Origin: a virus
Taxonomy: Duplodnaviria; Caudoviricetes
Strand: one strand, 5' to 3'
DNA: 64,000 nt
IMG/VR virus record: IMGVR_UViG_3300047157_000186
Below, piece by piece: positions 32,498-56,809 of this stretch (position 1 is its first letter; each line of letters starts with the position of its first letter). The notes below the pieces were generated by a model. It did not search any database and was not told where the DNA came from. It saw nothing but the letters and a program-made list of their open reading frames with translations. The translations under genes were made by a program, and so were the position numbers.

Positions 32498-32541
32498 TAC
32501 TAAATAAATGAATATATAAATAAATAAAACAAAGATAAATA

Positions 32542-34176
32542 ATGGCAAACATTACAAATGGAACAGTATCAGTAACAGTATCTGGAGGAGTCGGACCTTA
32601 CCAGTATACTTTATTGAACGCAGGGAATAATTTACCTGTACCACAAAACGCATATCCGACGTTTCAAAATCCTGTAAATTCAGTTGTATCAAACTCATTT
32701 ACTTTTGGAAACGCTACAGATTATTCAGGTAACAGTGGAGTTGTTGCAGGTGATTATAAAATAAAAATAGTCGACGGAAATGGTTGTGAAACTTTTACTA
32801 ATGTTTTAACTGTTAATGCCAATACTCCTTCGCCAACTGCGACACCAGCTCCGACTGCAGTTCCAACTGCAACGCCAGTGCCAGATCCGACTGCAACGCC
32901 AGTGCCAGATCCGACTGCAACGCCAGTTCCAGATCCTACAGCAACAGCTATACCAGATCCGACTGCAACGCCAGTTCCAGATCCTACAGCAACAGCTATA
33001 CCAGATCCAACTGCAACGCCAGTTCCGACTGCAATACCAACTGCAACGCCAGTTCCGACTGCTGAACCATTATTATTACAACCACAGAGACATGTTGTTT
33101 CTGGATGGAATCTAATGGCAGGTGAACCTGAAGAATTCATAAATGGATTACTTGATAAGAATGAAGAAGAACATCGTGATTTCTTCTGTAATGCACAAGA
33201 TATTAGTGGTGTATCTCATCAAGCAGGAGACGAAGCTAGACCATATGTATTATGGACCGCTGAAGAAGAGGCGTTAACTATGCCTGAAGTTGGAAACGTA
33301 TTTTACGCAGATCAAAATGGAGATGAATTCTTTACAAATAGTGGATTCCTTTGGTGGAATTCTGAAACACCATCATCAGAACCTACAAATTACTTCTGGG
33401 TTACTATAGGATCTGAAGGTGTAGCTACTAAAGTTTTACAATGGACAGAATGTCCACCAGATCCAACTGCAACGCCAGTTCCACCAACTGCAACGCCAGT
33501 TCCAACAGCTGAACCAACTGCAACGCCAGTTCCAACAGCTGAACCAACTGCAACGCCAGTTCCAACAGCTGAACCGACTGCAACGCCAGTTCCACCAACT
33601 GCAACGCCAGTTCCAACAGCTGAACCGACTGCAACGCCAGTTCCACCAACTGCAACGCCAGTTCCAACAGCTGAACCAACTGCAACGCCAGTTCCAACAG
33701 CTGAACCAACTGCAACGCCAGTTCCACCAACTGCAACGCCAGAACCAGAACAAGCTGATGCATATTACTTCCACTTAGGATCAGGAGGATATCCTTACGC
33801 ACAAGATCTAATTGGAGGAACTTTATATAAAGCTGATAATAGTGTAGCTGCTAATTATGATGAATCATTCGCAGATATGTTAGCTAACCCTGGATCATAT
33901 GAACAAGTAAACTCACTATCTGAAATAGTTGATGGTACTAGTTTTACAATTCCGGCAAGTAGTTCAGCTAACTTCTATTGGCTAGCAATTCCAGTAGATA
34001 TGATAGGTGATGACTTAACAGTTCATAAAAGATTTGAAATCGATGGAGCACCAGCAGATAATTGTTCAGAAAAATTAGCATTTGTTGGACCAAATGGAAC
34101 TAATTATAATTTGTATAAATTAAACACTGTTCCAATGACTATTGAATTACCTATAGTTTACGTTGTAAATAGCTAA
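32542..34176 (+). CDS. Putative fibre/adaptor protein: SprB-like N-terminus, Pro-Thr repeats, C-terminal domain X
   Basis: GTVSVTVSGGVGPYQY; two PTATP tracts. Confidence 0.75.
   Translation: MANITNGTVSVTVSGGVGPYQYTLLNAGNNLPVPQNAYPTFQNPVNSVVSNSFTFGNATDYSGNSGVVAGDYKIKIVDGNGCETFTNVLTVNANTPSPTATPAPTAVPTATPVPDPTATPVPDPTATPVPDPTATAIPDPTATPVPDPTATAIPDPTATPVPTAIPTATPVPTAEPLLLQPQRHVVSGWNLMAGEPEEFINGLLDKNEEEHRDFFCNAQDISGVSHQAGDEARPYVLWTAEEEALTMPEVGNVFYADQNGDEFFTNSGFLWWNSETPSSEPTNYFWVTIGSEGVATKVLQWTECPPDPTATPVPPTATPVPTAEPTATPVPTAEPTATPVPTAEPTATPVPPTATPVPTAEPTATPVPPTATPVPTAEPTATPVPTAEPTATPVPPTATPEPEQADAYYFHLGSGGYPYAQDLIGGTLYKADNSVAANYDESFADMLANPGSYEQVNSLSEIVDGTSFTIPASSSANFYWLAIPVDMIGDDLTVHKRFEIDGAPADNCSEKLAFVGPNGTNYNLYKLNTVPMTIELPIVYVVNS
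33461..33745 (+). repeat. Intragenic tandem repeat of 30-nt (PTATPVPTAE) and 21-nt (PTATPVP) units
   Basis: CCAACTGCAACGCCAGTTCC recurs directly; similar tracts occur at about 28345-28460, 32820-33060 and 35165-35295. Confidence 0.9.
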
Positions 34177-34204
34177 AATAAATAATAAAAATAAATAATA
34201 AAAA

Positions 34205-36097
34205 ATGGCACTACCACAAGGAATACAAAGAGTTAACTTTTTATCAGCATCCGCTCCAAGTGATGGAATAATACATTCTATTGCACAAAAGGGTGGATAT
34301 CAAGAAATCTATCATCAGAATGATTTCCCTACAATTACATGTTTTGAAAACAGTGATTCAGCATATACTGGTTTCACTTTATCAGATGACATATGGTCTT
34401 CAGGTAGAAGAAGAGCCGGTATGTTGGTTTTTGTAATGAAAACAAAACAATTTTTTAATTTAATTCCAGTAGGTTTTGTTGGAAACGGAGGAGATTTACT
34501 TGAAGCTGATTGGATTAATATGCCTGAGTGGGAAAGAGCATTGAGAATTGATCCTTCAGGAACTTATTGTTCTGAAGGAGCAACTCCAGCAAATGGTTTT
34601 ACTGCTGTACAAAAAACAGCTGCAGATATAGGAATATCTGCAGATCCAATGGGATGTTGGATAGAAACAAGTATCGGAACTAATGGAGTTGATGGAGCAG
34701 ACGGAGCTGATGGAGCACCAGGAGCTGATGGAGCCGATGGAGCACCAGGAGCCAATGGAGTTGATGGAGCTGATGGAGCACCAGGAGCCGATGGAGCCGA
34801 TGGAGCTGATGGTCAAGATTATGAAAAAGTATTAGATTTCTGGTCTGAAGGAGCAGAATTCTATAAAGTAGGTCAAGATTCAGAATATGAAAATAGTGTT
34901 AACAATAGAAATCCTAACTTATATGTATGTAAAGGTGAAACTTATACATTTAGAAGATCTACTGGAGGGCATCCATTAAATATTTTTAGTCAAAACGGTA
35001 ATATCGCTGCAGGAATTGTTAGTGGTAGTTTACCAGTTGTTGAAAATGCAGATTTAGTGTGGAAAGTACCACAAGATGCGTTTGGAACATATACATATGT
35101 GTGTACTGCACATGCAGGTATGACAGGAACAATAACAGTATGTTGTGCTGACGGAACTCCGGCTCCAGATCCAACTGCAACACCAGTTCCTCAACCAGAT
35201 CCAACTGCAACGCCAGTTCCTCAACCGGATCCAACTGCAACGCCAGTTCCAGATCCAACTGCAACACCAGTTCCTGAGCCAACTGCAACACCAGAAGCAC
35301 CTAAAGATGTGTATACATTTGGTGTAAATGTAGCTGACGGTGCAGGAGATATTGAAAATAAAGAAGCATGTGAAGATTTAAAACATCCAATATATACTTC
35401 AGATAAAGCAGATCCAATGCAATTAACTATAGGTGATCGTTTATGGCAAGACGTTGAAACAAGTGTGCCATTTAATGGTAGCGACAGATGGTATGATATA
35501 GGAAATGAAGGAATTCCAAAATTAAAAGTTAAAGTTAGAGGCGGTGAAATAGTATCAGTTGCTGATTGTCCAGGAGATTCTCCGGATCCAACACCGCAAC
35601 CAGATCCAACTGCAACACCGCAACCAGATCCAACTGCAACACCGATTCCACCAACACCTCAACCAACTGATAGTTCAGGTGATGGAAACGGTCCAACACC
35701 AACTGCAACACCAGATAGACCTGAGGATAAATACACAACTACATGGACATTTGAAGAAGCTTCACAAGATCCAACTTATAAAATAGTTTCAGGTACAGGT
35801 AGTAGTAGAAATGAGGAAGAAGATCTAACATCATTTAGAACTCCTGCAGTAAGTAAAGAAACTTCTACTAACCATTACTTATGGATTGTTAGAAGAGACG
35901 GACAACCTATTACTAATTCGGCAGTTGCACGTCTAGAACTAGAAGGTTCTGCTCAACAACATATTGTTAATCAAAATGCTATAAGAGTACAAATACCAAT
36001 TACTCAAGCAGAAGGAGATAGAACATACACTGGAACATTAATTACAAATCCTGAAGGAGGCGAAGGAGGCGAAGGAGAAGGAGATGATCCAAGGTAA
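34205..36097 (+). CDS. Fibre protein: domain Y, collagen, cupredoxin-like domain, Pro-Thr repeats
   Basis: [12 protein letters not shown]; GADGAP repeats; GHPL...YVCTAHAGMTG. Confidence 0.75.
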   Translation: MALPQGIQRVNFLSASAPSDGIIHSIAQKGGYQEIYHQNDFPTITCFENSDSAYTGFTLSDDIWSSGRRRAGMLVFVMKTKQFFNLIPVGFVGNGGDLLEADWINMPEWERALRIDPSGTYCSEGATPANGFTAVQKTAADIGISADPMGCWIETSIGTNGVDGADGADGAPGADGADGAPGANGVDGADGAPGADGADGADGQDYEKVLDFWSEGAEFYKVGQDSEYENSVNNRNPNLYVCKGETYTFRRSTGGHPLNIFSQNGNIAAGIVSGSLPVVENADLVWKVPQDAFGTYTYVCTAHAGMTGTITVCCADGTPAPDPTATPVPQPDPTATPVPQPDPTATPVPDPTATPVPEPTATPEAPKDVYTFGVNVADGAGDIENKEACEDLKHPIYTSDKADPMQLTIGDRLWQDVETSVPFNGSDRWYDIGNEGIPKLKVKVRGGEIVSVADCPGDSPDPTPQPDPTATPQPDPTATPIPPTPQPTDSSGDGNGPTPTATPDRPEDKYTTTWTFEEASQDPTYKIVSGTGSSRNEEEDLTSFRTPAVSKETSTNHYLWIVRRDGQPITNSAVARLELEGSAQQHIVNQNAIRVQIPITQAEGDRTYTGTLITNPEGGEGGEGEGDDPR

Positions 36098-36121
36098 TTA
36101 ATTAATTAAATTAATTTTATT

Positions 36122-36151
36122 AAAAGAGAGGCTTTTTGCCTCTCTTTTTTT
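36122..36151 (+). terminator. Intrinsic terminator
   Basis: AAAAGAGAGGC-TTTTT-GCCTCTCTTTT followed by Ts. Confidence 0.85.
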
Positions 36152-36205
36152 GTTTCCACGTTTTTAATTTAGATATATAAAAAAAGAAAAATAATTTAAT
36201 TTATA

Positions 36206-39200
36206 ATGGCTTTACCACAAGGAATACAAAGAGTTAACTTTTTATCTCATTCAGCACCATCTGAAGGTTTAATACATTCTATCGCACAAAAGGGTGGTTA
36301 TCAAGAAATGATAACAGTTGGAGAAAGAAATAGTATACCTCTTTTTGAAAATGGAGTTTCAACATATACAGGTTTTACAATATCGGATGACATTTGGTCA
36401 TCAGGTAGAAGAAGAGTTGGTATGATGATTCATGTTGTAGAAGATAAAAAAATATTTAATTTAATTCCCGTTGGTTTCTTTGGAAACGGTGGTGATTTAG
36501 GAGAAGCTGATTGGTTAGCTTTACCAGAATGGGAAAGAGCATTAAGAATAGATCCTGCAGGAACTTACTGTGCTGCGGGTGCAACTCCAGCAAATGGTTT
36601 TACTGCTGAACAAAAAACGGCTGCAGATATAGGAATATCTAATGATCCTAATGGATGTTGGGTAGAATTATCATTATCTGGAGAAAGCGGAGCTGATGGA
36701 ACTTCAGGTGTAGATGGAGCTGATGGAGCACAAGGAGTAAATGGGAACGATGGAACTTCAGGTGTAGATGGATCCTCAGTAAATTTCATGACTACTTCAA
36801 CTGATATACACTCAAATAATGCAAACGGTACTTTAACAGTAGATCCTGGATTATCTTATATAGGTGGCGAATATATTTCGATTACACAACCATTAGATAT
36901 GACTAATGTACAAATTGCAATAGTAACTGCTTACAGTAATACGCAATTAACATTTTCACACGTATCAAATAACGGTAACTTATTAAATAGTAACGGTCCT
37001 TGGATTATTAATCTAAGTAGTGTACCTGGTCAAACAGGAGCAGATGGAACATCAGGAGTTGATGGAAACGATGGAACTTCTGGTAGTAATGGAACTTCTG
37101 GTATTAATGGACTCGCTGGAACTTCAGGAAATGACGGTGTTAATGGAACATCAGGAGTTGATGGAACATCAGGAAAAGATGGTTCTAATGGAGAAGATGG
37201 TGAAGATGGAGTTAATGGAACTTCTGGTATCAATGGAACTTCTGGTATCGATGGAACTTCTGGTATCGATGGAGTTAGTGGAACTTCTGGTATAGATGGA
37301 ACTTCTGGTATAGATGGAACTTCTGGTATTAATGGAACTTCAGGAGTTGATGGAAACGCTGGAACTTCTGGTGTAGATGGAACTTCTGGAACAGATGGAG
37401 ATTCAATAGAATTTGCAACTTCATTTAATGGTCCACATAGTCTCGGTGAAGACAGAAATCCAGGTAACCAAGATTTAGGTTCGGTAACAGTAGATACTGG
37501 TTTATCATATCAAGGTGGTGAATACGTTATAGTATCTTTAGATGCCAGTCCGGATGATTTTGATATAGTACAAGTAACTTCATATGATAGTTCTACTGGT
37601 GTAATGATGTGGAATAACGTTTATCAAAGTACAGAATCTTCATTTAGTTCTAATTGGAATATCAACTTAACTGGTATACCAGGTATTAAAGGTGATGATG
37701 GAGCTACAGGTGCCGATGGTGTTGATGGTAGAGGAATCTCTTCTATTACAATAGACGACGATGGTAACATGATAATTGTTTATACGAACGGTGATGGTGC
37801 TACTTTACCAAATGTTGGCGGTGAAGATGGAACATCTGGAGTAGATGGAACTTCTGGTGCAGATGGAACTTCAGGAGTTGATGGAACTTCAGGTATTAAA
37901 GGAGAAGATGGAACTTCAGGAATTAATGGTATAGATGGAACTTCAGGTGTAACACCAATAAAAGGTGAAGATTATACTGATGGAACTTCAGGAAAAGACG
38001 GTGCAGATGGAACTTCAGGAGTTGATGGAAACAATGGAACTTCTGGTGCAGATGGAACTTCAGGAGTTGATGGAACTTCAGGTATTAAAGGAGAAGATGG
38101 AACTTCAGGAGTTGATGGTCCACGAGGTGGAGTAGGACCAGGTGTTAATTTTAAAGGAGAAGTTGAAACAGAAGCAAATTTACCGGAAGAAGGCAATCAA
38201 CAAGGTGACGCATATATTGTACAAGCAGATGATAGTTTCTGGATGTGGAACGGAACAAATTGGATTAATGGTGGATCAATACAAGGTGCATCAGGAACTT
38301 CAGGTAAAGATGGAACCTCAGGAGTTGATGGAAACGATGGAACTTCAGGAGTAGATGGAACTTCAGGAAAAGACGGTGAAGATGGAACTTCAGGTAGAGA
38401 TGGCGCAGATGGTACATCTGGAGCTGATGGTGCTGATGGTGATCATGGAACATCAGGTATAAGCGGAACTTCAGGTACAACTCCAATAAAAGGTGAAGAT
38501 TATGTAGATGGAACTTCAGGAAAAGACGGTGAAGATGGAACTTCAGGAGTAAGCGGAACTTCAGGAGTTGATGGAACTTCAGGAGTTGATGGAACTTCAG
38601 GTAGAGATGGAACATCTGGAATTAATGGTACATCAGGTGCAACACCAATAAAAGGTGAAGATTATAACGATGGAACTTCAGGAATTAATGGAACATCAGG
38701 TGTAACACCAATAAAAGGTGAAGATTATGTAGATGGAACTTCAGGAAAAGACGGCGAAGATGGAACTTCAGGTAGAGATGGAACTTCAGGAATTAATGGT
38801 ACATCTGGAATTAACGGTACATCTGGAATTAACGGTGTAAACGGAACTTCAGGTGTAAACGGAACATCTGGAATTAATGGTACATCAGGTATAAGTGGAA
38901 CTTCAGGTGTAACACCAATAAAAGGTGAAGATTATACTGATGGAACTTCAGGAAAAGACGGTGAAAATGGAACTTCAGGTAGAGATGGAACAAGTGGATC
39001 TTCAGGAGTAACTGGTAATCCAGGAACATCAGGTGTAAGTGGAACTTCTGGTGTAAGTGGATCAAGTGGATCTTCAGGAACTGATGGATCGAGCGGATCT
39101 TCGGGAAGAAATGGAACTTCAGGTATAACGCCAATAAAGGGTGAAGATTATGTAGATGGAACTTCAGGAAAAGACGGTGAAGATGGAACTTCTGGTATAG

Positions 39201-40939
39201 ACGGAACATCTGGAACTAATGGTTCTTCTGGATCTTCAGGTGAAGATGGTGGTAGAGGAAATGATGGAAGTTCAGGAACTGATGGAACTTCAGGTAAAGA
39301 TGGATCAAGTGGAACTTCAGGATCAAGTGGTTCTTCAGGAACTAATGGATCAAGTGGAACTAATGGTACATCAGGTACAACACCAATAAAAGGTGAAGAT
39401 TATGTAGATGGTGAAAACGGCACATCAGGTAAAGATGGAACTTCAGGTAGAAATGGTGAAAATGGAACATCAGGATCAAGTGGAACTAACGGAACTTCTG
39501 GTACAGATGGTAGTTCAGGTTCGAGTGGAAGCTCAGGAACTAATGGAAGTTCAGGAACTAATGGTACAAGTGGAACTAATGGAACTAGCGGAAGCTCAGG
39601 TTCATCAGGAACTAACGGAACTTCAGGTATAACACCAATAAAAGGTGAAGATTACACTGATGGAACTTCTGGAAAAGATGGAACTTCTGGAACTTCTGGA
39701 ACTAACGGAACTTCTGGTACAGATGGTAGTTCAGGTTCGAGTGGAAGCTCAGGAACTGATGGAAGTTCAGGAACTGATGGAACTTCTGGTTTAGCTGGAA
39801 CTTCAGGTAAAGATGGAACTTCAGGTATAACACCAATAAAAGGTGAAGATTATACTGATGGAACTTCAGGTAAAGATGGAACTTCAGGTACAAATGGTAC
39901 TTCTGGAACAAATGGTACAAGTGGAACTGACGGTTCTTCTGGAACAAATGGTACAAGTGGAACTGACGGAACAAGTGGAACTGACGGAACTTCTGGTACT
40001 AATGGTAGTTCAGGTACAACTCCAATAAAAGATGAAGATTATACTGATGGAACTTCAGGTAAAGATGGAACTTCAGGAACTGATGGAACTTCAGGTAAAG
40101 ATGGAACTTCAGGAACTGATGGATCAAGTGGAACTGACGGGACTTCAGGAACTGATGGAACTTCAGGAACTGATGGAACTTCAGGAACTGATGGAACAAG
40201 TGGAACTGATGGAACTTCAGGTGTAACACCAATAAAAGGTGAAGATTATACTGATGGAACTTCAGGTAAAAACGGAGACCCTGGAACTTCAGGTACAAAT
40301 GGATCAAGTGGAACTGACGGAACTTCAGGAACTGACGGAACTTCAGGAACTGATGGAACAAGTGGAACTGACGGAACTTCAGGAACAAACGGTACATCAG
40401 GTAAAACACCAGTAAAAGGTGAAGATTATACAAATGGAACTTCAGGAACAAACGGAAGCTCAGGTACAAATGGAACTTCAGGAAGAGATGGTAGTGGAAC
40501 TAGTGGAACTTCAGGTAATTCTGGATCGCGTGGAACAGGATCATGTTGGGAACATATAGCTCTTAATCCAGTTGCAAGAGACGTAACAGTCACAAATAAT
40601 GGATTGCAAAAGGCATTCGTAAAGGTGCCATTTACATTTGAAAATGAAGGATATGAATTAAGATGGATAGAATCATCATATGGTACTGTTAATAACACAG
40701 CTAACGTAGTATATACTTTAAACGGTGTAAGTAGCAACGGTGCAGTAAGTAGCATTGCAACATGGACACATAGTGCTAATAATAAATTTGCAATTTCACC
40801 GGTAATGGAAAAAGTAAATACTGACTCTAAATATTTATATGTTACAGCTTCAAATCAAGACTTTTCAGCAAAAGGATTTACTGTAACCTTAGAGTTTGTG
40901 AACAATGATAGTGACTGTTATGATTACACAGATATGTAA
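36206..40939 (+). CDS. 1577-aa collagen-like fibre: domain Y plus GTS/GxD triplets with 12 TPIKGEDY-type interruptions
   Basis: Gly every third residue over long tracts; a duplicated TV(D/E)..LSY.GGEY domain; GAGATATATA upstream. Confidence 0.85.
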
Positions 40940-40962
40940 TAAAAATAGAATATATAATTAAC

Positions 40963-41280
40963 ATGGTAAAATTATTTGAAGATTTTTTAAATGAGAAGAA
41001 TTTACAAGTCCAAGTTAGAGATCACGTTATTAGATATAGGTTAACATATCAATATGGTAAAGGTGGATTTATAACAATGGCAAGTAATAGCAAAGAATTA
41101 GATAAACAAATAGAGATTGACAATCCAATGGAAATAGGCAAGGCTATTGAAAATTCTATTAATGCGGAGCTTAAAAAACTTAGACAATTATTTACTGTAG
41201 AAGAAGATCATGGTTATCAAGGAGCTGGATATGCTTTTTATATTGTATTTGATGATCTATTAAAATTATTAAATAAGTAA
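40963..41280 (+). CDS. CTS-motif protein
   Basis: MVKLFEDFLNE; GAATATATA at 40948. Confidence 0.75.
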   Translation: MVKLFEDFLNEKNLQVQVRDHVIRYRLTYQYGKGGFITMASNSKELDKQIEIDNPMEIGKAIENSINAELKKLRQLFTVEEDHGYQGAGYAFYIVFDDLLKLLNK

Positions 41281-41283
41281 ATT

Positions 41284-42825
41284 ATGATAACAGTATTTGG
41301 CGATTTTGAACCAACACCAACACCAACTGCGACATCAATTCCAACAGGTAATTGTCAGCATTCATGGTTTTCAATAGAAGTAGATCAAAATAAGTACGGC
41401 ATACGTTACAAATCAATAGAAACTGGAAATTATGTAACAACACGCCTTACTATGGCAATAAGTACTGCAAATGTATGGCGCTTTGGACAGGAAGGTTATG
41501 TTGTTTCTGTATGTTCACAAGAAGTAGTAAATGTATATGATTTTAATAATAACGCAATCGTCAGTGGTATTGATGGTTTTGAAAGATTAGCTTCAGGTGG
41601 TTCATGTTCTAATGATGGTCCATGTTCTTATGATGCTCCTAACCCAACTGCAACACCAGTACCAACTGCAACACCAGTTCCAACACCCTCACCTACTCAA
41701 ACACCAGATTGTCTATATTATACTTTAGTACCTAGTTCTGGTGAAACAACTGCAACTTATGCTTGGATAGCATGTGGAGGAGGAACTCAATTTAGTACTT
41801 GGACAGGTTTATCTGGAGATCAAAGAATTGTTTGTGCTAAATATGGTACAGTAAGAAAAACTAGTGGAAGCGGATCGATATTTGTTGGTAGTGAATGTGA
41901 ATTACCACCACCTTCTCCAACACCAACTGCAACACCAGTTCCAACATCGAGACCAACTGCAACACCATATCCAACTGCAACACCTAATCCAACTGCTGCA
42001 CCACCTACAGCAACACCTATACCATTTCCAACTGCAACACCAGTTCCAACACCAAACAAAGACTCAGGTGGAGGTTCAGGACCTGTAGAACCAACACCGT
42101 TGCCAACGCCGGTTCCACCAACTGCAACACCATCATATTATGTATATGAATTGAGTTCATGTAATTCTGAACAATCAAATGTTAAAGCTAGATCTAATAC
42201 TCAACTAGTAATAGGAGGCAAATATGAACTTACTGGTTCTAGTTACCAAAGTGGATCACCATGGACTATTTTAAGAACAAGAACTGGTTTTTACGAAACA
42301 TGGATTGGCAATGTAACGAGAGATGCATGTGACAGTGGAGGTGAATGTTTATTAGAAGGAACACAAATTAAATTACCTAATGGAACGTCTACACAAATAG
42401 AAACATTAAAAATAGGTGATACTTTAGCTTCTAATAACATAGGTAATATGCCAAATACTGATAATGTACTTGAATTATTAACATGGGAAGAAACTGATCC
42501 ATCAGTTTCAAGTACAACTACAACTATTGTAGGTATAGAATTAAATACTGTTACTAGAGTTTTAAACTTTAATCAAGGATTATTAACATCAACAGTAGCA
42601 CATTTACATATTATTAAAAGAGATAATTTATGGATGGTTACCCAAGCAATAAATATCAAAGAAGGTGATATCTTTATAGATGATAGTGGTACAGAACATA
42701 TTATCAATTCAATCGAAGATATGTCTGGAACTTTCAATACTTATAAAATAGATGTTGAAGAGAATGATACATATATCGCTAATAATATTATTACACATAA
42801 TAGGAAATTACAGGATCCAGTCTAA
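41284..42825 (+). CDS. Pro-Thr-rich, Cys-rich protein with a C-terminal Hint domain
   Basis: GGE-CLLEGTQI at 42346; H in block B (TVAH); ends YIANNIITHN-RKLQDPV. Confidence 0.85.
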   Translation: MITVFGDFEPTPTPTATSIPTGNCQHSWFSIEVDQNKYGIRYKSIETGNYVTTRLTMAISTANVWRFGQEGYVVSVCSQEVVNVYDFNNNAIVSGIDGFERLASGGSCSNDGPCSYDAPNPTATPVPTATPVPTPSPTQTPDCLYYTLVPSSGETTATYAWIACGGGTQFSTWTGLSGDQRIVCAKYGTVRKTSGSGSIFVGSECELPPPSPTPTATPVPTSRPTATPYPTATPNPTAAPPTATPIPFPTATPVPTPNKDSGGGSGPVEPTPLPTPVPPTATPSYYVYELSSCNSEQSNVKARSNTQLVIGGKYELTGSSYQSGSPWTILRTRTGFYETWIGNVTRDACDSGGECLLEGTQIKLPNGTSTQIETLKIGDTLASNNIGNMPNTDNVLELLTWEETDPSVSSTTTTIVGIELNTVTRVLNFNQGLLTSTVAHLHIIKRDNLWMVTQAINIKEGDIFIDDSGTEHIINSIEDMSGTFNTYKIDVEENDTYIANNIITHNRKLQDPV

Positions 42826-42840
42826 TCTCATTGGACATGT

Positions 42841-42866
42841 AAACAAAACGTTGATATATAATATAA
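42841..42866 (+). promoter_or_regulatory. Overlapping AAAC-N17-TATAA and GATATATA motifs
   Basis: Upstream of the glycosyltransferase cluster. Confidence 0.5.
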
Positions 42867-42889
42867 CTACTAATTAACGTTATAATTAC

Positions 42890-44137
42890 ATGGAAGAAAC
42901 CATTTTTATTCAGATAGCTAGCTATAGAGATCCTGAATTATTAAATACTCTAAAAGATTGTATAGAAAATGCTGAACATCCTGATCGACTTAGATTTGGA
43001 ATATGTTGGCAACATTCACCAGAAGATGAATGGGATACAATGGATCTATATAAAGATGATGATAGATTTAGAATTTTAGATGTAAATTACAAAGACTCTA
43101 CTGGAGCATGTTGGGCTAGAAATAGCATACAACAATTATATAAAGGAGAAACATACACCTTTCAATTAGATTCACATCATCGATTTATTAAAAACTGGGA
43201 TACAGTATTAATTACTATGTTGAAAGACTTACAAGCTAAGGGTCATGAAAAACCATTACTTACAAGTTATATTTCCTCATATCAACCTGATAATGATCCT
43301 GAAGGCAGACAAAAGCAACCATGGTTAATGAATTTTGATAGATTTACACCAGAAGGTGTTATATTCTTTTTGCCTGCTAGTATACCTAATTGGCAAAATC
43401 TAAAAGAACCAGTATCCTCTAGATTTTACTCTGCTCATTTTGCATTTACTTTAGGTAAGTTTGCAGTTGAGGTTCAACACGATCCTGAATTCTACTTTCA
43501 TGGTGAAGAGATAACTATTGCTATTAGAGCATTTACGCATGGATATGATTTATTTCACCCACATAGAATAATTGCTTGGCATGAATATACTCGTAAAGGT
43601 AGAACTAAACAATGGGACGATGATCCAGAATGGCATAAAAGAAATCATAGAACTCATGAGAAAACTCGCAAATTATTAGGTATCGATGGAGAATCCTTTG
43701 ATTCAGAAGAGGAAACATTTAATAAATATGGTTTAGGAAGAGTTAGAACTATTGCAGATTGGGAAAAACACTCTGGTATTAGATTAAAAGATAGACGAGT
43801 ACAACAACATACATTAGATAATTTACTATCACCTAATCCAATACCATTAGATTACGACAATAGTTTTCTACCAAAGTTTAAAACATTTATAGATATACCA
43901 AAATCCAAATTAACAGAAAAAGATTATGAATTCGTCGCTGTTATATGTGAAAAGGAAGATGGAACATCTGTATATAGAAATGATTTAAATGCTGGTGAAA
44001 TTAAAAGTAAACTTGATTCTGGAGATGAATGGGTCAATGTTATTGTAGATTATCAAGGTGAAAAACCATATAAATGGGTATTTTGGCCATATAGTACAGC
44101 TAAAGGTTGGTGTGAAAAAATAGAAAGAGTTATATAA
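42890..44137 (+). CDS. GT60-like (GlcNAc family) polypeptide/Hyp alpha-GlcNAc transferase
   Basis: IFIQIASYRD.E, GACWAR, QLDSHHRF..NWD, F.GEE, RAFTHGYDLFHP. Confidence 0.8.
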   Translation: MEETIFIQIASYRDPELLNTLKDCIENAEHPDRLRFGICWQHSPEDEWDTMDLYKDDDRFRILDVNYKDSTGACWARNSIQQLYKGETYTFQLDSHHRFIKNWDTVLITMLKDLQAKGHEKPLLTSYISSYQPDNDPEGRQKQPWLMNFDRFTPEGVIFFLPASIPNWQNLKEPVSSRFYSAHFAFTLGKFAVEVQHDPEFYFHGEEITIAIRAFTHGYDLFHPHRIIAWHEYTRKGRTKQWDDDPEWHKRNHRTHEKTRKLLGIDGESFDSEEETFNKYGLGRVRTIADWEKHSGIRLKDRRVQQHTLDNLLSPNPIPLDYDNSFLPKFKTFIDIPKSKLTEKDYEFVAVICEKEDGTSVYRNDLNAGEIKSKLDSGDEWVNVIVDYQGEKPYKWVFWPYSTAKGWCEKIERVI

Positions 44138-44955
44138 TGAGGAAGGCACTTACTGGTGTTAGTAACAATGTTGCTAAAAATATCGATAAAATAAAAGTTT
44201 GGGCTCATAGTTTTGAAGAACAAACTGATGGAGATGCGGTCCTTATAGCGGCAGATATGTCTGAAGATGACAAAGTGTCATTAGAAACTAATAATATTAA
44301 GTATTTTGAGGTAAAAACTGATCAAAACTTAACAATTAATGATAGTAGGCTAAATCATACAGCAAATTGGATAGAAAATAGTGATTATGATGTTTTTATG
44401 GTCACTGATGTTTTTGATGTTTGCTTTCAAGGTGATCCATTTGAATTAATGGATTTTAATTCTTATGATTTCTTTGCAGCATCTGAAGGTATATTCCACA
44501 GAGAAGAGCCATGGAACATGGATGTTATGACTAAGGCATTTCCAGAAGAACATGACTTTATAAAACCATTTGAAGTTGTATGTAGTGGAGTAATGGGAGG
44601 TAAAAAAGATTCTCTAGTAAAAACACTAAGAATGCAACAAAAATTAGTTGATGGAGCATTACATGGTCATGATATTAGAGATCAAGCTGCATTTAATATT
44701 TTAATTTACAAGAATCAAATAGAAAAATGTAAGATTTTTAAACCAAATGATGGTTGGGTAATACATTGTTCATTATCAGGTCCAACATTTCAACACATAG
44801 AATGGGGATTAGGTAAATTAATTGAAAGTAGATATGGATTGCCTGTTCTTAAAGGTAATCATTTAGTAGATTCTAATGATAGATTATACAAAATAGCTCA
44901 CCAATATAATAGAATTCCTGAATGGGATGTAAAAATTATAGAAAAATATGTCTAA
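44137..44955 (+). CDS. GT-A fold glycosyltransferase-like protein
   Basis: VTDVFDVCFQGDPF; DQAAFN; HQYNR. Confidence 0.7.
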   Translation: MRKALTGVSNNVAKNIDKIKVWAHSFEEQTDGDAVLIAADMSEDDKVSLETNNIKYFEVKTDQNLTINDSRLNHTANWIENSDYDVFMVTDVFDVCFQGDPFELMDFNSYDFFAASEGIFHREEPWNMDVMTKAFPEEHDFIKPFEVVCSGVMGGKKDSLVKTLRMQQKLVDGALHGHDIRDQAAFNILIYKNQIEKCKIFKPNDGWVIHCSLSGPTFQHIEWGLGKLIESRYGLPVLKGNHLVDSNDRLYKIAHQYNRIPEWDVKIIEKYV

Positions 44956-45673
44956 AAAGATAGTTTGTACATGTGATAACACTTTTAGGTCTTATGATTC
45001 TTATTGGAAAACAGTAGATTTTGACTTTGAATATTTGTCTGATAGATATCCTATTGGAATTGAATATGATGAGCAAAAAGTAAGAGATATTTTTAATTTT
45101 AAAGGTGATGTTAGTAAAAAACACTTTTGGAACTCACAAGGAAATAAAAATATTATTTGGTTTTATGCACATTTCAGAATGGCTTACTATTTTATACTCA
45201 ATCCAAATGAAGAATGGTATTGGTTTATGGATGATGACGTAATTTGTGATAATTGGTCAGAATTCTTTAAGGCATTTGAAAATAACGATGCAGATTTTAT
45301 TTCTTATTATGTTTTTAAGAATAAAGGTGTTAAAAACCAATCAAATATACCTGAAATAGACGATAATACACATAGTAACATCGCATGGTTTGATAGATTT
45401 CCTGGAGATGGCGATCATATTGATAAAAAAGATGAATTATTTGGATCATTCTTTCCAATAGTTAGATTTTCAAATAAAAGTCTAAGACATTTAACTAATT
45501 TATTGATAAATAAAGAGCATGGTTATTCAGAAGGATTTGTGCCTACTATATTGAATAGAGATGGATTTAAATTAGACACTATTTTTAATAATCAAAGTAA
45601 ATCAGATCATTTCGATATAAATAAGATAAATATTAAACATAAGAATATTCAAGTAAATTGGTCTTGGATTTAA
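44948..45673 (+). CDS. GT-A fold glycosyltransferase-like protein
   Basis: WYWFMDDDV; FFPIVRFS; SEGFVPT. Confidence 0.65.
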   Translation: MSKKIVCTCDNTFRSYDSYWKTVDFDFEYLSDRYPIGIEYDEQKVRDIFNFKGDVSKKHFWNSQGNKNIIWFYAHFRMAYYFILNPNEEWYWFMDDDVICDNWSEFFKAFENNDADFISYYVFKNKGVKNQSNIPEIDDNTHSNIAWFDRFPGDGDHIDKKDELFGSFFPIVRFSNKSLRHLTNLLINKEHGYSEGFVPTILNRDGFKLDTIFNNQSKSDHFDINKINIKHKNIQVNWSWI

Positions 45674-45684
45674 ACAATTATAAA

Positions 45685-46452
45685 ATGAAACCACTAATAA
45701 TTACAGCATTATATGATATTGGTCGTTCCGAATGGAAGGATTATTCAATGTCATATCATACATATTTAACATGGATGGCAAACACATTGAAGTTAAAATG
45801 TGAGATGGTAATTTTTACACAACCTAAATTTGAAGAACGTGTTAGAGAAATGAGATCTCTTGTGGATCCTGATAACAAAATAACTAAATATGTTATAAAT
45901 GAAATAGAAGATTTAGAAGCATATAAAAAATGGAATGAGCCATTAACAGAATTAATGATCAGTGAATCATTTAAAGAGAAAAGACACTGGGATCATGTTC
46001 CTGAAATGAACTATCCATTATACAATATCATAATGTTCAATAAAGTGTTCTTTTTAAAGGAAGCTTTGAATTTATGTCCAGATGCTACACATTTATTATG
46101 GTTAGATGCAGGTGGTATAAGAGAAGATGTAGATGTCAATGATAATTGGCCAAATATTGAAAGATTAGAAGACAAAATAATTAAGTTTAGTCATAATGTA
46201 CCCTTTGAAGTTCCTGATCCTCAGTGGCATAGTTTTTCACAAGTTAGGAATATACAAGGTACTGCATTTGTGTGCCCATCTAAAACAATAGATTGGTATA
46301 TAAGTGAGATTGAAAAAACAGTAGCATTATGCTTAGAAGACGGATTTATGGGTAGTGATGAAAAAATATTTGATTTAACCTACGTAAAAAATCCAAACAA
46401 ATTCACCTTGATTAAACAAGGATGGAGGGAATATTACGAGTGGTTGTCATAA
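45685..46452 (+). CDS. WlaTC/HtrL-family glycosyltransferase
   Basis: ITALYDIGR; YNIIMFNKVFFL; LWLDAG; GSDE. Confidence 0.75.
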   Translation: MKPLIITALYDIGRSEWKDYSMSYHTYLTWMANTLKLKCEMVIFTQPKFEERVREMRSLVDPDNKITKYVINEIEDLEAYKKWNEPLTELMISESFKEKRHWDHVPEMNYPLYNIIMFNKVFFLKEALNLCPDATHLLWLDAGGIREDVDVNDNWPNIERLEDKIIKFSHNVPFEVPDPQWHSFSQVRNIQGTAFVCPSKTIDWYISEIEKTVALCLEDGFMGSDEKIFDLTYVKNPNKFTLIKQGWREYYEWLS

Positions 46453-46453
46453 T

Positions 46454-47338
46454 ATGTATACATTAGTAACTGGAGGTGCAGGGTTTGTAGGAACACATTT
46501 AATTAAAAGTATTTTAAATAATACACCACATGCAAAAATCGTTTCATTAGACGATTATTCTACTGGTCAAAAATCAAATCATATAGAAGGAGTACAGTAT
46601 GTTGAAGGACAAACTCAATGTGCTATGCGTACATTATCAAGATTTAAATTTGATGTTATCTACCATTTTGGAGAGTATTCTCGAGTATACCAATCATATG
46701 AAGATTTCGACAAAGTACAGTCATCATGTATGGAAGGTACAAGCCAAATAATAAGATTGGCAATTAAAAACAAGGCAGTATTAATATACTCAGCATCATC
46801 ATCTCACTTAGGACAAAAAGATCATGATCTCTCACCATATAGTTGGCTTAAGAAACAAAATGTACAACTGATCAAAAAACACCAAACTTGGAATGATCTA
46901 AAAACACACATATTTTATTTCTTTAATGCATATGGACCAGGACAAATAACTGATGGACCATACGCAACAGTTTTAGGTATATGGGAAAGACAAATCAAGA
47001 ATGAAGAAGCAATTACAGTTGTAGAACCAGGAACTCAAGCAAGAATATTTACAAGAGTAGAAGCCATTGCATTAGCATGCGCTCGCCACGAATTACTACC
47101 AATTAATCTGGAATGGGCACTATATTCAGAAGATAAAACAACACTATTAAAAGTGGTTCAAAAACTAAAAAGGAAAACAAAGTGGGTAGAAGCCAGAGAT
47201 GGTGATAGATTAAGAGTACCAAGAATTAGAATACCTCAACCTCCACATTGGGAACATCCATATAGATTAGAAGATTGGGTTGGAGATCTTAGAAGATGGA
47301 CAAAACCCACAACACCAGAAGATTACAATATCCAGTAA
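46454..47338 (+). CDS. NAD-dependent epimerase/dehydratase
   Basis: VTGGAGFVG; SPYSWLK; FFNAYGPGQ; GTQARIFT. Confidence 0.85.
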   Translation: MYTLVTGGAGFVGTHLIKSILNNTPHAKIVSLDDYSTGQKSNHIEGVQYVEGQTQCAMRTLSRFKFDVIYHFGEYSRVYQSYEDFDKVQSSCMEGTSQIIRLAIKNKAVLIYSASSSHLGQKDHDLSPYSWLKKQNVQLIKKHQTWNDLKTHIFYFFNAYGPGQITDGPYATVLGIWERQIKNEEAITVVEPGTQARIFTRVEAIALACARHELLPINLEWALYSEDKTTLLKVVQKLKRKTKWVEARDGDRLRVPRIRIPQPPHWEHPYRLEDWVGDLRRWTKPTTPEDYNIQ

Positions 47339-47339
47339 G

Positions 47340-47477
47340 ATGTTACTAATTAAGATGATTGCAATCATGGTTTTAGGATACCTAATTATGAATAGAATCT
47401 TAAAACGAATGGATGATGGGGTCTGGTGGGATTGGCGCTCAGAATTCTGGAAAAAGCATAAGAAAAGACCTAAATAA
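47340..47477 (+). CDS. Small membrane peptide
   Basis: TM helix plus a Trp/Lys-rich tail; ATG at 47340. Confidence 0.55.
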   Translation: MLLIKMIAIMVLGYLIMNRILKRMDDGVWWDWRSEFWKKHKKRPK

Positions 47478-47498
47478 AATAACATCTATATATAAAAT

Positions 47499-47954
47499 AT
47501 GGAGCACTTGATTAGAGTAATAACAGTTTGTATTGGCATATGGTTTAGTCAACCAAACCAGTCTCTTGAACCTCAACCTTTCACGCTCCACCCAACACAT
47601 ATTCAATACATACAAGACAGTATACAAAGACCAATTCCAAGGAGACAGGTTAAGATCTTATTTCATTTTGGATTCTCACACCCAAATCTAAAAGGACTCA
47701 CATATCAAGTAGATCAAGACAGGTATATAATTCACCTAAATAGATTCCATAAACGAGACTGGTGGAAGGTTACCCATCATGAATTGGTCCATGTAAAACA
47801 GTTGGTTAGTCAACATCTACAAACGCACGCAACCCACTGGCAATGGCATCAAACTCAATACTCTTTTGAAACACCATATCATAAAAGACCATGGGAACTG
47901 GAAGCATTTAAACAAGCCAATCAAATTGAAACTCGCACGCTCCATGGACAATAA
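47499..47954 (+). CDS. Putative zincin metallopeptidase
   Basis: HELVHVKQ...YHKRPWELEA. Confidence 0.7.
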   Translation: MEHLIRVITVCIGIWFSQPNQSLEPQPFTLHPTHIQYIQDSIQRPIPRRQVKILFHFGFSHPNLKGLTYQVDQDRYIIHLNRFHKRDWWKVTHHELVHVKQLVSQHLQTHATHWQWHQTQYSFETPYHKRPWELEAFKQANQIETRTLHGQ

Positions 47955-48036
47955 CTTCTACCCAATAATAATATCCTAGTAATGATAGTAATACACCTAT
48001 ATAAGGACTATAAAGATAACAAATCAAACCTATAAT

Positions 48037-48123
48037 ATGGAACCAGTATACCTCATCATCCCTACAGTCATATACCTATACATCTCTATAAGGGCAAGAC
48101 AGAAATCAAGACACAATTGGTAA
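48037..48123 (+). CDS. 28-aa single-TM peptide (not in the ORF track)
   Basis: MEPVYLIIPTVIYLYISIRARQKSRHNW*. Confidence 0.45.
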   Translation: MEPVYLIIPTVIYLYISIRARQKSRHNW

Positions 48124-48160
48124 ACCACCAATCCAACGCTCCAAGGGCATCCGACCCTCA

Positions 48161-48200
48161 AGGGTGGTAGAAAGTGGTAAAAAGTGGTAAAAAGTGGTAA
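48161..48200. repeat. Tandem decamer AAAGTGGTAA (three perfect copies, one degenerate)
   Basis: Read directly from the sequence. Confidence 0.9.
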
Positions 48201-48480
48201 ACTTTATCAATCCCATACTCTAAAGCCAACCCAGAGCCCAGTCAGTCCCCAGGGGATCAGATATATACTGGTTATTAGATCGTTCATTGAGTATGAGGAG
48301 CTCCCAGAGATGAGTTAAACGTGGGGCGCGAACATACACACACCACATGACTCCGAATTACCCCTAAGCATCCCAGAACACCAGACTAGTCAGGTCTGGC
48401 GTTGGGTGGAGGTATACTAAGTCTCCAATGTATAATTAAAAGACCCGGACTTCAGATACCCGCCGGGCAGGGTTTAGGTT

Positions 48481-49591
48481 TTATGCTAATGGGCTGCCCA
48501 GGTTAGCTTCATCCGCCGGGTCGAGCTCAGATTCATTAGGAACCGCAGCAAATAAGCGGTCAAACGCATCCTCTTCATGCTTTAGTTTCTCTTTTTCTTC
48601 AGCTATCAGCTCCTGGTTAAGTAGATCTCTCTTATACCTAGTGGTATCAAAGGTGACTCCGTTGGTAAAGTCAAAGAATAACTTGTTACCCTACTCCTCC
48701 TAGACGGTTCTTGCTGAATTCCATATACCTTTCAGCTGAGTTCTCAGAGCCTTTCCATTGTAATTCTAACATGGCAGTGGTCATGTGTTTTAGTTTGTTT
48801 GAGCCGACAAATGTACCTCCTTTAGATAACTGTAGGATGGTGATAAAGGTAGTGTATACCTTACGCTTGTTTTTACCTTGGTTATTGGCGATCATCATGT
48901 CTAGGAACCACTTTTCAGTCTTACCTCGAGTCATGTTACAAGCCTCTTTAATAGTGTCATTTACCTCAGTGTAGGAGTCAGTTAAGACTAAGTCCCAACC
49001 TTGTGCCAAGGTCTGCTCGATTACTGCTTGTGGATTCTCATCTACATAGTCAGAAAGGAATAGGATTGGCAGCTGTCCCCAGTGTGGGAAACGTTTTAGA
49101 TAACGAGCCATGTCAAGCTGATTCATTTCAGCCGAGATGAAGAGCACCTTTTTAGTAGGATCAGATTTTTGAACTGAGTATAGTGTCTCTAAAAGGACAG
49201 TAGTTTTACCAACACCTGGTGCTCCTGCTGCCATGATGTTAGAACCAGGCATGTAACCTCCATCATTACTTAGGAATGAATCAATTGAAGTATTAGTTTT
49301 AAGAGGGACGAACAGGTCATCAGAGAATTTAAGATTGTCCAACTTAGTTAGATTGATCTTAAGCTTGGCTGCCTTTTTGGTTGGCACTGATTTGTAAAGA
49401 CCATAGTAATCCTTAGCTGAGGTCATCTTACCATCTGTATAGACATTGATAACTCTACCTGCGTCTTGTGATTCTAACCAACCATATTTAGGGTGATCAG
49501 CGCGGGCAATTATAGTTTCTTTAGTTGAAGGTGCATAGAGCTCGAATGCTCCACCTTTTTGCTTTTTGAATGTAAATTGTGTTTTTGACAT
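48481..49591 (-). CDS. RadA/Sms-like RecA-family ATPase; frameshift near 48690
   Basis: GAPGVGKTT, FISAEM, LTDS, SNKLKHM, KNR. Removing one G from GGG extends the frame (GNKLFFDF...GSPLA*) to 48481. Confidence 0.8.
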
Positions 49592-55170: not shown

Positions 55171-55404
55171 ATGGACAAGTTTAATGAAGAGCACATGCGT
55201 GCGTTAGAACAGAGATATAGTGAACTAGTTAATCCTAGAAAATTAATTGAGTATTTGTCTACTCCCGAGGAATTCGAAGATTGGGCAAGATTGGGAACAC
55301 CAAGCGATATTAGATCAGCCCTCATCGCATTTGAAAAAGAGGAATTATATGATCACTGTGCAATACTAAAGAAAGTATTGATTAGTATAGAATCAAATGA
55401 GTAG
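55171..55404 (+). CDS. Small protein with a UVR-like C-terminal helix pair
   Basis: FEKEELYDHCAILKK. Confidence 0.65.
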   Translation: MDKFNEEHMRALEQRYSELVNPRKLIEYLSTPEEFEDWARLGTPSDIRSALIAFEKEELYDHCAILKKVLISIESNE

Positions 55405-56315
55405 TATAGAAGAACAATATCGTGGACTATTGGGTTCACTCTTACATAATTCAGTAAAAAAATCAGATCGCACTGGCACTGGAACACATTCTATTTTTGG
55501 AAGACAGATTAGACATGACATGAAACAAGGATTTCCTTTGTTAACTACTAAGCGTATGGCAGTCAAGACGATGATGACTGAATTAAAGTGGTTTCTTAAA
55601 GGTGATACTAATATTAAGTACCTTGTTGATAATGGGTGTAGCATTTGGAATGGTGATGCTTATAAAGCATTTAAGAGTACATTTTCGCCAATGCCCGGAA
55701 TTCAATCATCTTTACCCAGTCAAGATGAATTTATCAACAAAATCAAAACCGATAATGAGTTTGCTCAGAAGTGGGGTGAGTTAGGTCCTATTTATGGAAA
55801 GCAATGGAGAGGTTGGTTTGGTTATGATAAAAATGTAGATCCTGTTTTTGTAGATCAAATCGCAAACCTCATCGAAGAACTAAAAACAAATCCAGATTCT
55901 CGTAGACTTGATGGTTAATGCATGGAATGTTGGAGATTTACCAACTATGGCCCTTCCACCATGTCATTATGGATTTCAGTGTTACGTAAGAGATGGTAAA
56001 TATCTTTCATTAATGTGGAATCAAAGATCTGTAGATACTTTCTTAGGTCTTCCATTTAATATTGCTAGTTATGCGGCATTATTGTGTTTGATCGCAGAAG
56101 AAGTTAACATGATTCCAGATCAATTAATTGGAAACTTAGGTGATGTGCACTTATATTCTAATCATGTAGATCAAGCAATGGAACAGATTTCTAGAGAGAT
56201 TTATGATTTGCCTACTGTTTCATTTAAGAATGTAAATATATTAGATGGTGAATTTGATTACGAGGTACATGATTATAAATATCATCCAAGTATTAAAGCG
56301 CCATTAAGTAATTAA
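55397..56315 (+). CDS. thyA: Thymidylate synthase; frameshift near 55908
   Basis: DRTGTGT, FPLLTTK, LGPIYGKQWR, PDSRR, ALPPCH, QRSVDTFLGLPFNIASY, HLYSNH. Confidence 0.92.
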
Positions 56316-56434: not shown

Positions 56435-56809
56435 ATGAAGATAGCATTAATAGCACACGATAATAAAAAAGCTGATATGGTCGCTTTTGTTTCTAAACGA
56501 TTACCATTCTTTAATAGAGAAGATGTTACGATTGTTACGACTGGTACAACTGGTAAACATTGTAAACATGCTGGCATCAAGAATTTAGAAACTGTATTAA
56601 GTGGACCATTAGGTGGTGACGCGCAGATTGCTGCAATGACAGTTGAAGGTAAAATAGATCTAGTTATTTTTATGAGAGATCCTTTAGATAAACATCCACA
56701 TGATGTAGATATTTCTATGTTGATGAGATTGTGTGATGTGCATAATATACCATTGGCTACAAATTACAAAACCGCAAGTTACTTAATTAAATACTTAAAA
56801 CAATCATGA
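56435..56809 (+). CDS. mgsA: Methylglyoxal synthase
   Basis: ALIAHDNKK, TGTTG, SGPLGGD, PHDVD, LATN. Confidence 0.92.
   Translation: MKIALIAHDNKKADMVAFVSKRLPFFNREDVTIVTTGTTGKHCKHAGIKNLETVLSGPLGGDAQIAAMTVEGKIDLVIFMRDPLDKHPHDVDISMLMRLCDVHNIPLATNYKTASYLIKYLKQS

Follow-up and report, generated by a model that had tools for sequence, protein, structure and literature searches.

The characterised members of glycosyltransferase (GT) family GT60 are polypeptide alpha-N-acetylglucosamine (GlcNAc) transferases. They are related to the animal N-acetylgalactosamine (GalNAc) transferases that initiate mucin-type chains; a C-terminal ricin-like lectin domain is the mark of GT27 (PMC8724618). In Dictyostelium the GT60 enzyme Gnt1 modifies hydroxyproline of Skp1, and the pp-alphaGlcNAcT enzymes of Dictyostelium and Trypanosoma cruzi modify Thr of mucin-like repeats. 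Here we analyse a GT60-family gene that heads a row of five genes (positions 42890-47338) in the tailed-phage sequence IMGVR_UViG_3300047157_000186. The whole stretch of 64,000 nucleotides is called the window. The five genes follow genes for Pro/Thr-rich and collagen-like proteins, and the comparisons described below suggest that this phage probably sugar-coats its own appendages. Like the protist enzymes, the phage protein belongs to PF11397, carries a DxH motif and lacks a ricin-type lectin domain; it is soluble like Gnt1, and its gene stands beside Thr/Pro-rich candidate acceptors. Unlike them, it is phage-encoded, has a C-terminal extension of ~115 residues and is followed by an operon-like row of further transferases.

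Virion glycosylation by phage enzymes has been described in mycobacteriophages (Che8 gp110, Corndog gp38 and Myrna; Freeman et al. 2023, as summarised in PMC12363180 and PMC12619734). The phage analysed here would likewise encode glycosyltransferases that O-glycosylate its own structural proteins in the host cytoplasm. According to these summaries, the mycobacteriophage glycans were measured and sit on the C-termini of capsid or tail-tube subunits, whereas Pro/Thr linker tracts are proposed here from the genes alone. Homology to Che8 gp110 or Corndog gp38 did not appear among the tblastn matches of the GT60 protein, the only protein which that search covered. Virion self-glycosylation is established for mycobacteriophages only, with enzymes unrelated to GT60, and our literature searches found no paper on GT60/PF11397 in phage or on glycosylated Pro/Thr tracts of phage fibres.

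Three other systems bear comparison. Mimivirus encodes L230, a lysyl hydroxylase/glucosyltransferase, and R699, a collagen Gal-Hyl glucosyltransferase (PMC9546862, PMC12279948). Here too a virus encodes collagen-like fibres together with putative decorating enzymes, and a 272-residue protein of the cluster shares the GT-A fold of R699. The Mimivirus chemistry, however, takes place on hydroxylysine, whereas the lead enzyme here is a GT60 protein, and the likeness is one of fold only. In phage DNA hypermodification clusters, GT-A or GT-B enzymes and epimerases lie beside genes for a 5-methylcytosine dioxygenase or for thymidylate-synthase-like proteins (bioRxiv 10.1101/2023.12.21.572611, PMC13326640). 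The present cluster resembles them in setting several phage glycosyltransferases and a nucleotide-sugar enzyme in one row; unlike them, it has no adjacent base-modifying enzyme, its lead enzyme belongs to a polypeptide-modifying family and its neighbours are fibre genes. Finally, the large cyanomyoviruses P-SSM2, S-SCSM1 and S-SCSM2R carry 'cell-wall / LPS' (lipopolysaccharide) clusters (PMC12801897). These are, like the phage studied here, large marine phages with many glycosyltransferases, epimerases and genes of the 3-deoxy-D-manno-octulosonate (Kdo) pathway. These cyanomyoviruses contain no GT60 homologue, however, the host here is probably a member of the Bacteroidota, and the host-surface reading of the cyanomyovirus clusters is itself only putative.

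Results

The five-gene cluster

The window is AT-rich (about 29-42% G+C). From 27660 to 47954 every long open reading frame (ORF) lies on the + strand with very short gaps, and genes beyond about 48.6 kb switch to the - strand. The cluster consists of the following genes (aa, amino acids; E, expectation value).

42890-44137, + strand: GT60-family (PF11397) glycosyltransferase, 415 aa, assigned by Pfam, PHROG and alignment
44137-44955, + strand: putative 272-aa enzyme of GT-A fold, retaining GT6/GT8/PLOD-GT-like type (AlphaFold model)
44948-45673, + strand: putative 241-aa enzyme of GT-A fold, GT31-like, with an invariant DDD at 95-97 (AlphaFold model)
45658-46452, + strand: HtrL/YibB-family protein (PF09612, E 3.4e-21), likelier start ATG at 45685
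46454-47338, + strand: nucleotide-sugar epimerase/dehydratase of the short-chain dehydrogenase/reductase (SDR) type (PF01370, E 3e-22), assigned by Pfam and solved relatives

The initial annotation, made from the letters and their translations, had placed at these same coordinates a GT60-like gene, two GT-A-like genes, an HtrL-like gene and an epimerase, directly behind about 15 kb of fibre genes with PTATP units and Ser/Thr-rich collagen. All of this was confirmed: the profile matches and fold models agree with the gene assignments, the lead enzyme is a genuine GT60/PF11397 member, and the cluster directly follows 15.2 kb of genes (27660-42825) with 39 PTATP units and Ser/Thr-rich collagen. 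No enzyme or fibre protein has a membrane-spanning segment (maximum Kyte-Doolittle 19-mer <=1.3). Megablast of the cluster found nothing similar in the phage collection.

The lead protein matches Pfam PF11397 ('GlcNAc') with E 1.2e-75 and 255.6 bits against a cut-off of 21 bits, its best stretch covering profile positions 97-348 of 352, and phrog_24687 (glycosyltransferase) with E 5e-175. In its QLDSHHRF motif, D94, S95 and H96 are invariant among 22 aligned GT60 sequences of 43-82% identity, and H223, H225 and H231 vary little or not at all in the same sequences. We take the D-S-H of this motif to be a DxH metal site such as GT27 and GT60 enzymes have. The Pfam matches include no ricin or lectin family. 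The C-terminal extension (residues about 300-415) is conserved, lies outside the Pfam profile and belongs to no family. Sequence and profile searches of the protein against the PDB returned nothing usable. We infer that this protein is an initiating polypeptide N-acetylhexosamine (HexNAc) transferase.

Relatives of the GT60 protein are abundant in metagenomes, with >7,000 at 90% clustering and 4,706 cluster representatives at 50%. Of these representatives, 964 match at E 1e-30 or better, and many are parts of multi-domain proteins, which reach 2461 residues and contain up to four GT60-like stretches (five in one protein). Some homologues, among the relatives P0053, P0071 and P0089, have about 90 additional N-terminal residues, which are Cys-rich and resemble a zinc ribbon. 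Among 50,697 phage records, tblastn of the GT60 protein matched only XacN1, Xoo-sp13, CM1 and RAS14, all jumbo phages of Xanthomonas or Stenotrophomonas.

The next two proteins were assigned through fold models built from input alignments of 36 (272-aa) and 33 (241-aa) homologues. By sequence search the 272-aa protein gave only a weak PF03407 match, and sequence and profile comparison with solved structures showed no relation. Its model (predicted local distance difference test, pLDDT, 94.8) has a GT-A fold and matches alpha-1,3-galactosyltransferase (E 1e-9, template-modelling (TM) score 0.58) and Mimivirus R699 best, the latter a generic match with a TM score of about 0.5. It also matches the UGGT catalytic domain and giant-virus PLOD-type GT domains. 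For the 241-aa protein no family was assigned from sequence and no solved structure was matched by sequence. Its model (pLDDT 91.5) aligned in VIA-align with the GT31 enzymes AfGfsA (a galactofuranosyltransferase), Fringe, C1GalT1, B3GalT5 and B3GalT6 at Z 10.7-9.8, with B3GNT2 also among the matches, and these scores are tied with those of other GT-A families. The fold matches include the core-1 synthase bound to a GalNAc-Thr peptide. The models suggest that the 272-aa and 241-aa enzymes would extend a glycan.

The HtrL/YibB-family protein is presumed to be a fourth transferase. Its family was confirmed in the ESM Atlas, where members are mainly viral; sequence and profile searches against the PDB gave nothing usable. 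A relation of the HtrL family to the 272-aa family was considered and rejected, as hhalign shows none. The best solved relatives of the SDR protein are named epimerase/dehydratase and include WbgU and WbpP, which we take to be UDP-HexNAc 4-epimerases (UDP, uridine diphosphate).

The upstream Pro/Thr-rich and collagen-like proteins

The 15.2 kb before the cluster contain seven + strand ORFs, among them the following.

27660-28886, + strand: 408-aa candidate acceptor whose linker tracts (residues 166-273) are of Ser-Gly and PTATP type
28904-32497, + strand: 1197-aa collagen-like fibre protein with 77 G-X-Y triplets (Pfam Collagen E 1e-26)
32542-34176, + strand: 544-aa candidate acceptor whose two tracts (91-178 and 300-403) contain 18 PTATP units
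34205-36097, + strand: 630-aa protein with a short collagen stretch, a plastocyanin-like domain and two PT tracts
36206-40939, + strand: 1577-aa collagen-like fibre of GTS type (Pfam Collagen E 1e-118)
41284-42825, + strand: 513-aa protein of small domains on PT linkers with a Hint-like C-terminal domain, the immediate upstream neighbour of the GT60 gene

The PTATP units are distributed as 5, 18, 8 and 8 over the 408-, 544-, 630- and 513-aa proteins, in tracts of 17-104 residues. Of the 297 G-X-Y triplets in the 1577-aa fibre, 196 contain Ser or Thr, and the 1197-aa protein has Lys in the Y position of 12 triplets. Pfam Collagen was matched by three proteins (E 1e-118, 1e-26 and 7e-8). The repeat proteins are linked by common domains: the C-terminal domain of the 408-aa protein is shared with the 544-aa protein, and the N-terminal domain of the 630-aa protein with the collagen-like fibres. 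The 1197-aa protein matches phrog_10693 (host range/adsorption, E 1e-114) and the 630-aa protein phrog_677 (baseplate wedge tail fibre connector, E 5e-19). In all, the PHROG families matched by the collagen-like proteins are of the tail-fibre, adsorption and baseplate-connector kinds, and the repeats account for part of these matches; the label 'fibre' used here follows these partly repeat-driven matches to tail-fibre and adsorption families and is to be read as putative.

The Hint-like part of the 513-aa protein (about 42346-42825) begins with Cys and ends in His-Asn plus 7 residues, and its Pfam Intein_splicing match is weak (E 8e-4). This end suggests that the PT-rich protein may undergo self-cleavage or ligation.

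Conservation of the cluster in related phages

In the closest relatives (76-82% identity) the gene order is a PT-rich protein, GT60, the 272-aa and 241-aa proteins, HtrL, the epimerase and a 151-aa protein that also follows the cluster in the window. The module from GT60 to the epimerase is present in L046, L049 and L051. Small insertions add a gene for an FkbM methyltransferase (L046) or for a DUF3431 protein (L051). A contig of 302 kb has GT60, proteins of 275 and 253 aa and HtrL/DUF3431, followed by a UDP-galactopyranose mutase in place of the epimerase. The core of the module thus consists of four putative transferases and one nucleotide-sugar enzyme.

We tallied the four genes after GT60 in 37 dereplicated loci, which gave 127 neighbours in 56 families. 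HtrL_YibB was found 17 times and is thus the commonest partner of GT60 in related loci. It was followed by FkbM methyltransferase (10), a second GT60 (9), GT25 (6), and carbamoyltransferase, epimerase and GT34 (5 each), with GT2, GT11 and GT10 further down. The downstream neighbours look like a variable glycan-building set. A NodU/CmcH-type carbamoyltransferase gene lies directly after GT60 in XacN1 (ORF333, L054:10421-12718) and in five IMG/VR loci, which suggests carbamoylated sugars in the glycan of those phages.

Upstream of GT60 the PHROG tally was mixed: an unnamed family (10), collagen-type tail fibre families (4) and ribonucleotide reductase (4).

Pairing of GT60 with Pro/Thr-rich genes

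The phage set for this comparison comprised 45 viral loci plus assemblies, 49 in total and 38 after dereplication. The gene at position -1 of GT60 was Pro/Thr-rich in 20 of the 49 loci (14 of the 38), as against 20 of 668 other nearby genes (3%; odds ratio 18.9, Fisher p 9e-11). Within six genes of GT60 a Pro/Thr-rich gene was found in 19 of 37 loci. On the tree of GT60 proteins the paired loci are spread over at least six clades, and well-supported branches force at least four changes. Counted by lineage, an estimated 6 of about 22 are paired against the 3% background (p about 4e-5). The co-occurrence across phages, which the initial annotation had named as a check, is far above background in these related loci.

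The partner proteins are unrelated in their non-repeat domains. Their architectures include vWA domains (in the clade of the window), Cys-rich mini-domains and fibronectin-like modules; one partner N-terminal domain is conserved across three lineages. The tracts are the only feature common to all of them, and therefore the pairing is not one inherited gene pair. In contigs whose GT60 gene has no PT gene beside it, a DNA pattern for (PT)3 occurred 23 times (L010) or not at all (L013 and L006); this pattern is too strict for a conclusion.

GT60 family matches were also found in 339 bacterial species representatives of many phyla. Of 146 genes at +-1 of the bacterial GT60 gene, 8 are PT/PS-rich, compared to 12 of 735 elsewhere (odds ratio 3.5, p 0.01). 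Bacterial pairing is thus the same as in phages and weaker; examples are L058, L060, L064, L093, L118 and L128. The partners in Saprospiraceae and Lewinellaceae are exported proteins with Tat-like (twin-arginine translocation) signals and tails of the type IX secretion system (T9SS). In L060 (6513-7655, - strand) and L064 (6000-7751, - strand) a gene that runs divergently to the GT60 homologue specifies such a protein, which combines a Tat-like signal with a long PS/PT tract and ends in a T9SS-type domain. This protein is a candidate bacterial substrate of a cytoplasmic glycosyltransferase.

About 2.8 kb separate the GT60 cluster of the Xanthomonas phage XacN1 from a convergent tail-side block. 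Two baseplate wedge genes belong to this block, as does the gene for a 3313-aa protein whose PT tracts are C-terminal. On its other flank the cluster has DNA polymerase and RNase H genes.

Promoter-like sequences and RNA libraries

One promoter-like sequence precedes the cluster.

42854-42874, + strand: promoter-like box ATATATAATATAACTACTAAT upstream of GT60, of the form AAACAAAA-N5-ATATATAATATAAC

This box is kept in the four closest relatives, in three of which hairpins precede it. A box ATATATAAATA lies 30 nt upstream of the gene for the 544-aa protein. Boxes of the type ATATATAA stand upstream of both the fibre genes and GT60, with differing flanks. The T4 late box TATAAATA occurred 12 times in the window against 12.3 expected, which is no enrichment. 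A scan of 40800-48700 for sigma-70 promoters and terminators gave results at chance level, and the early-promoter 15-mer had no match in the region upstream of GT60.

In six seawater metatranscriptome runs, 56-82% of the words sampled from 40900-47400 are present. Contigs of four of these runs cover both the fibre genes and the cluster, which speaks for presence only; depth cannot rank the genes. Contigs X15 and X18 bridge the boundary between the 513-aa gene and GT60, which is no proof of a single transcript. The stretch 47582-48215 is uncovered in X15 and X17, a hint, too slight for a finding, that the libraries are not mostly DNA.

Discussion

We favour, with moderate confidence, reading the five genes as a cytoplasmic protein O-glycosylation module of the phage. 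The GT60 enzyme would transfer the first HexNAc from a UDP-sugar onto Thr of the Pro/Thr-rich linker tracts; Ser, or Pro after hydroxylation, would be less likely acceptors. Its targets would be the four proteins with PTATP units (408, 544, 630 and 513 aa). The 1577-aa fibre, with its Ser/Thr-rich collagen, is a further possible target, although another system may act on the collagen-like proteins. The GT31-like 241-aa, the retaining-type 272-aa and the HtrL/YibB-family proteins would add further sugars, and the SDR epimerase could be the source of a donor sugar missing from the host pool. Modification would take place in the cytoplasm before particle assembly. The proposed benefit is stiff, extended and protease-resistant linkers, and perhaps a masked or adhesive surface. 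Every test run that was capable of refuting this reading came out in its favour, and the interpretation given in the initial annotation appears to be the best supported, on evidence that is comparative throughout. Its proposal of glycosylated, mucin-like appendages gains support from these comparisons as far as glycosylation goes; 'mucin-like' was too strong a word for tracts that are linkers of 17-104 residues.

Several observations weigh against this interpretation. A Pro/Thr-rich neighbour is lacking in about half of the related loci, among them L052/L053, the closest module-sharing locus outside the clade. That the PT proteins belong to the virion is presumed, and the one next to GT60 carries a Hint domain here, or a vWA domain in the relatives. 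The box before GT60 resembles the ATATATAA(A/T) boxes of the fibre genes and is not identical to them, and in the relatives hairpins lie between the last PT gene and GT60. In addition, the window contains Kdo-pathway and GT9-like genes typical of LPS core synthesis, and members of the HtrL/YibB family occur in LPS loci of enterobacteria.

These last points lead to the idea that the cluster remodels the host envelope during infection (LPS core, an O-antigen-like or a capsular glycan), for example to block superinfection. The HtrL_YibB family match and the KdsA-like, KdsB-like, SIS-domain and GT9/GT1 genes of the window fit such a role, as does the weak resemblance of the epimerase to heptose and UDP-sugar epimerases, and the literature takes such clusters as host-surface modification (PMC12801897). 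We nevertheless consider envelope remodelling unlikely. A priming phosphoglycosyltransferase, flippase, polymerase or ligase is found neither among the five genes of the cluster nor among the 25 commonest of the 56 GT60-neighbour families, and the cluster enzymes have no membrane segment. Characterised GT60 enzymes use polypeptide acceptors, and envelope remodelling leaves unexplained why, in phages and bacteria, Pro/Thr-rich genes are paired with GT60 at a specific position. Even less probable, in our judgement, is that the enzymes glycosylate phage DNA at hydroxymethylcytosine or a related base, as in the T-even phages and the GT-A/epimerase hypermodification clusters. Phage GT-A enzymes with neighbouring epimerases do make DNA glycans (bioRxiv 10.1101/2023.12.21.572611), thymidylate synthase (TS) family genes are present in the window (55397-56312 and 61849-62700), and DNA polymerase and RNase H genes flank the XacN1 cluster. 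The TS-family genes, however, lie 8 kb and 14.5 kb from the cluster, beyond the strand switch and a block of - strand genes, and no base-modifying enzyme is encoded next to the cluster, which is itself located in the fibre block. Bacterial GT60 homologues adjoin exported PT/PS-rich proteins, and the literature searches found no DNA-acting GT60 member; we know of none.

Protein glycosylation could also be directed at targets other than virion fibres, namely non-structural or secreted phage proteins, host proteins, or the hydroxylysine of collagen. The candidate secreted targets would be the vWA- or Hint-domain PT proteins and the T9SS-tagged proteins of the phage. This would accord with the Hint and vWA domains of the nearest PT-rich neighbours, with the exported bacterial partners bearing Tat-like signals and T9SS tails, with the T9SS-tagged proteins encoded in the window, and, for collagen, with the fold matches of the 272-aa protein to the Gal-Hyl glucosyltransferase R699 and PLOD-type GT domains. 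We regard it as improbable as well, because the PT-tract proteins share domains with the collagen-like fibres and belong to the same + strand run, and the R699 match is generic, with no sequence-level relation of the 272-aa protein to solved structures.

If the phage does glycosylate its linkers as we favour, mucin-type initiation would no longer be purely eukaryotic, and the GT60-like genes that lie unannotated by the thousand in aquatic phages and bacteria would have an explanation. A marine phage that is abundant and turns up in many metagenomes and metatranscriptomes of seawater would then have sugar-coated fibres. Such a coat could alter how particles withstand proteases, stick to mucus or organic matter, recognise their host and behave in the sea.

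A bolder version involves hydroxyproline and one more gene of the window.

58732-59295, + strand: 188-aa 2-oxoglutarate-Fe(II) oxygenase (PF13640), solved relatives all prolyl 4-hydroxylases

These relatives are from B. anthracis (E 3e-6), PBCV-1 (E 2e-5), human and Chlamydomonas, and the start of the gene overlaps the stop of the KdsB-like gene. The oxygenase is a possible, unlinked supplier of hydroxyproline acceptors. Hydroxyproline-linked glycans are known at present from the protist Skp1 pathway and plant cell-wall proteins only. The distance of 11 kb from the cluster counts against this variant. Only one other locus, L009, has a homologue of the oxygenase near GT60, so a general link was not found. 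The general form of the proposal is a widespread cytoplasmic, GT60-based, mucin-type O-glycosylation of Pro/Thr linkers in phages and bacteria, in this phage perhaps with the prolyl-4-hydroxylase-like oxygenase giving hydroxyproline-linked glycans in parallel to a hydroxylysine code on the same fibres. We offer it as a speculation with a rather small chance of being right. Were it true, the eukaryotic initiating enzymes of GT60/GT27 would be rooted in prokaryotes or their viruses.

Other genes of the window

Further features of the window are as follows.

1-1590: GT9/GT1-like protein, cut by the window start
1595-2482: second SDR epimerase/dehydratase (E 3e-50)
3358-3762: small cytidylyltransferase-like protein
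4214-5401, - strand: protein with a CHU_C type IX sorting domain (E 2e-11)
7880-8614, + strand: protein with cohesin and Por_Secre_tail (E 3e-7)
16763-17506: KdsA-like DAHP_synth_1 protein (E 3e-52)
47340-47477, + strand: 45-aa peptide with one hydrophobic segment; a same-sized gene occupies the same place in L046/L048
47499-47954, + strand: 151-aa protein, hydrophobic at the N-terminus and bearing the HExxH motif HELVH, last gene of the + strand block
56806-57405: SIS-domain protein
58031-58732: KdsB-like cytidylyltransferase (E 2e-43)

The 151-aa HExxH protein is kept in the close relatives L046 and L049. The scattered sugar-pathway genes could together make a Kdo-type sugar for the glycan or for DNA. 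The T9SS-tagged proteins make a Bacteroidota host probable, and their tags point to a possible export of phage proteins by the T9SS of the host. A thymidylate synthase is apparently split into two overlapping ORFs, 55397-55915 (profile positions 1-128 of 266) and 55911-56312, and a further gene of this family lies 6 kb downstream (61849-62700).

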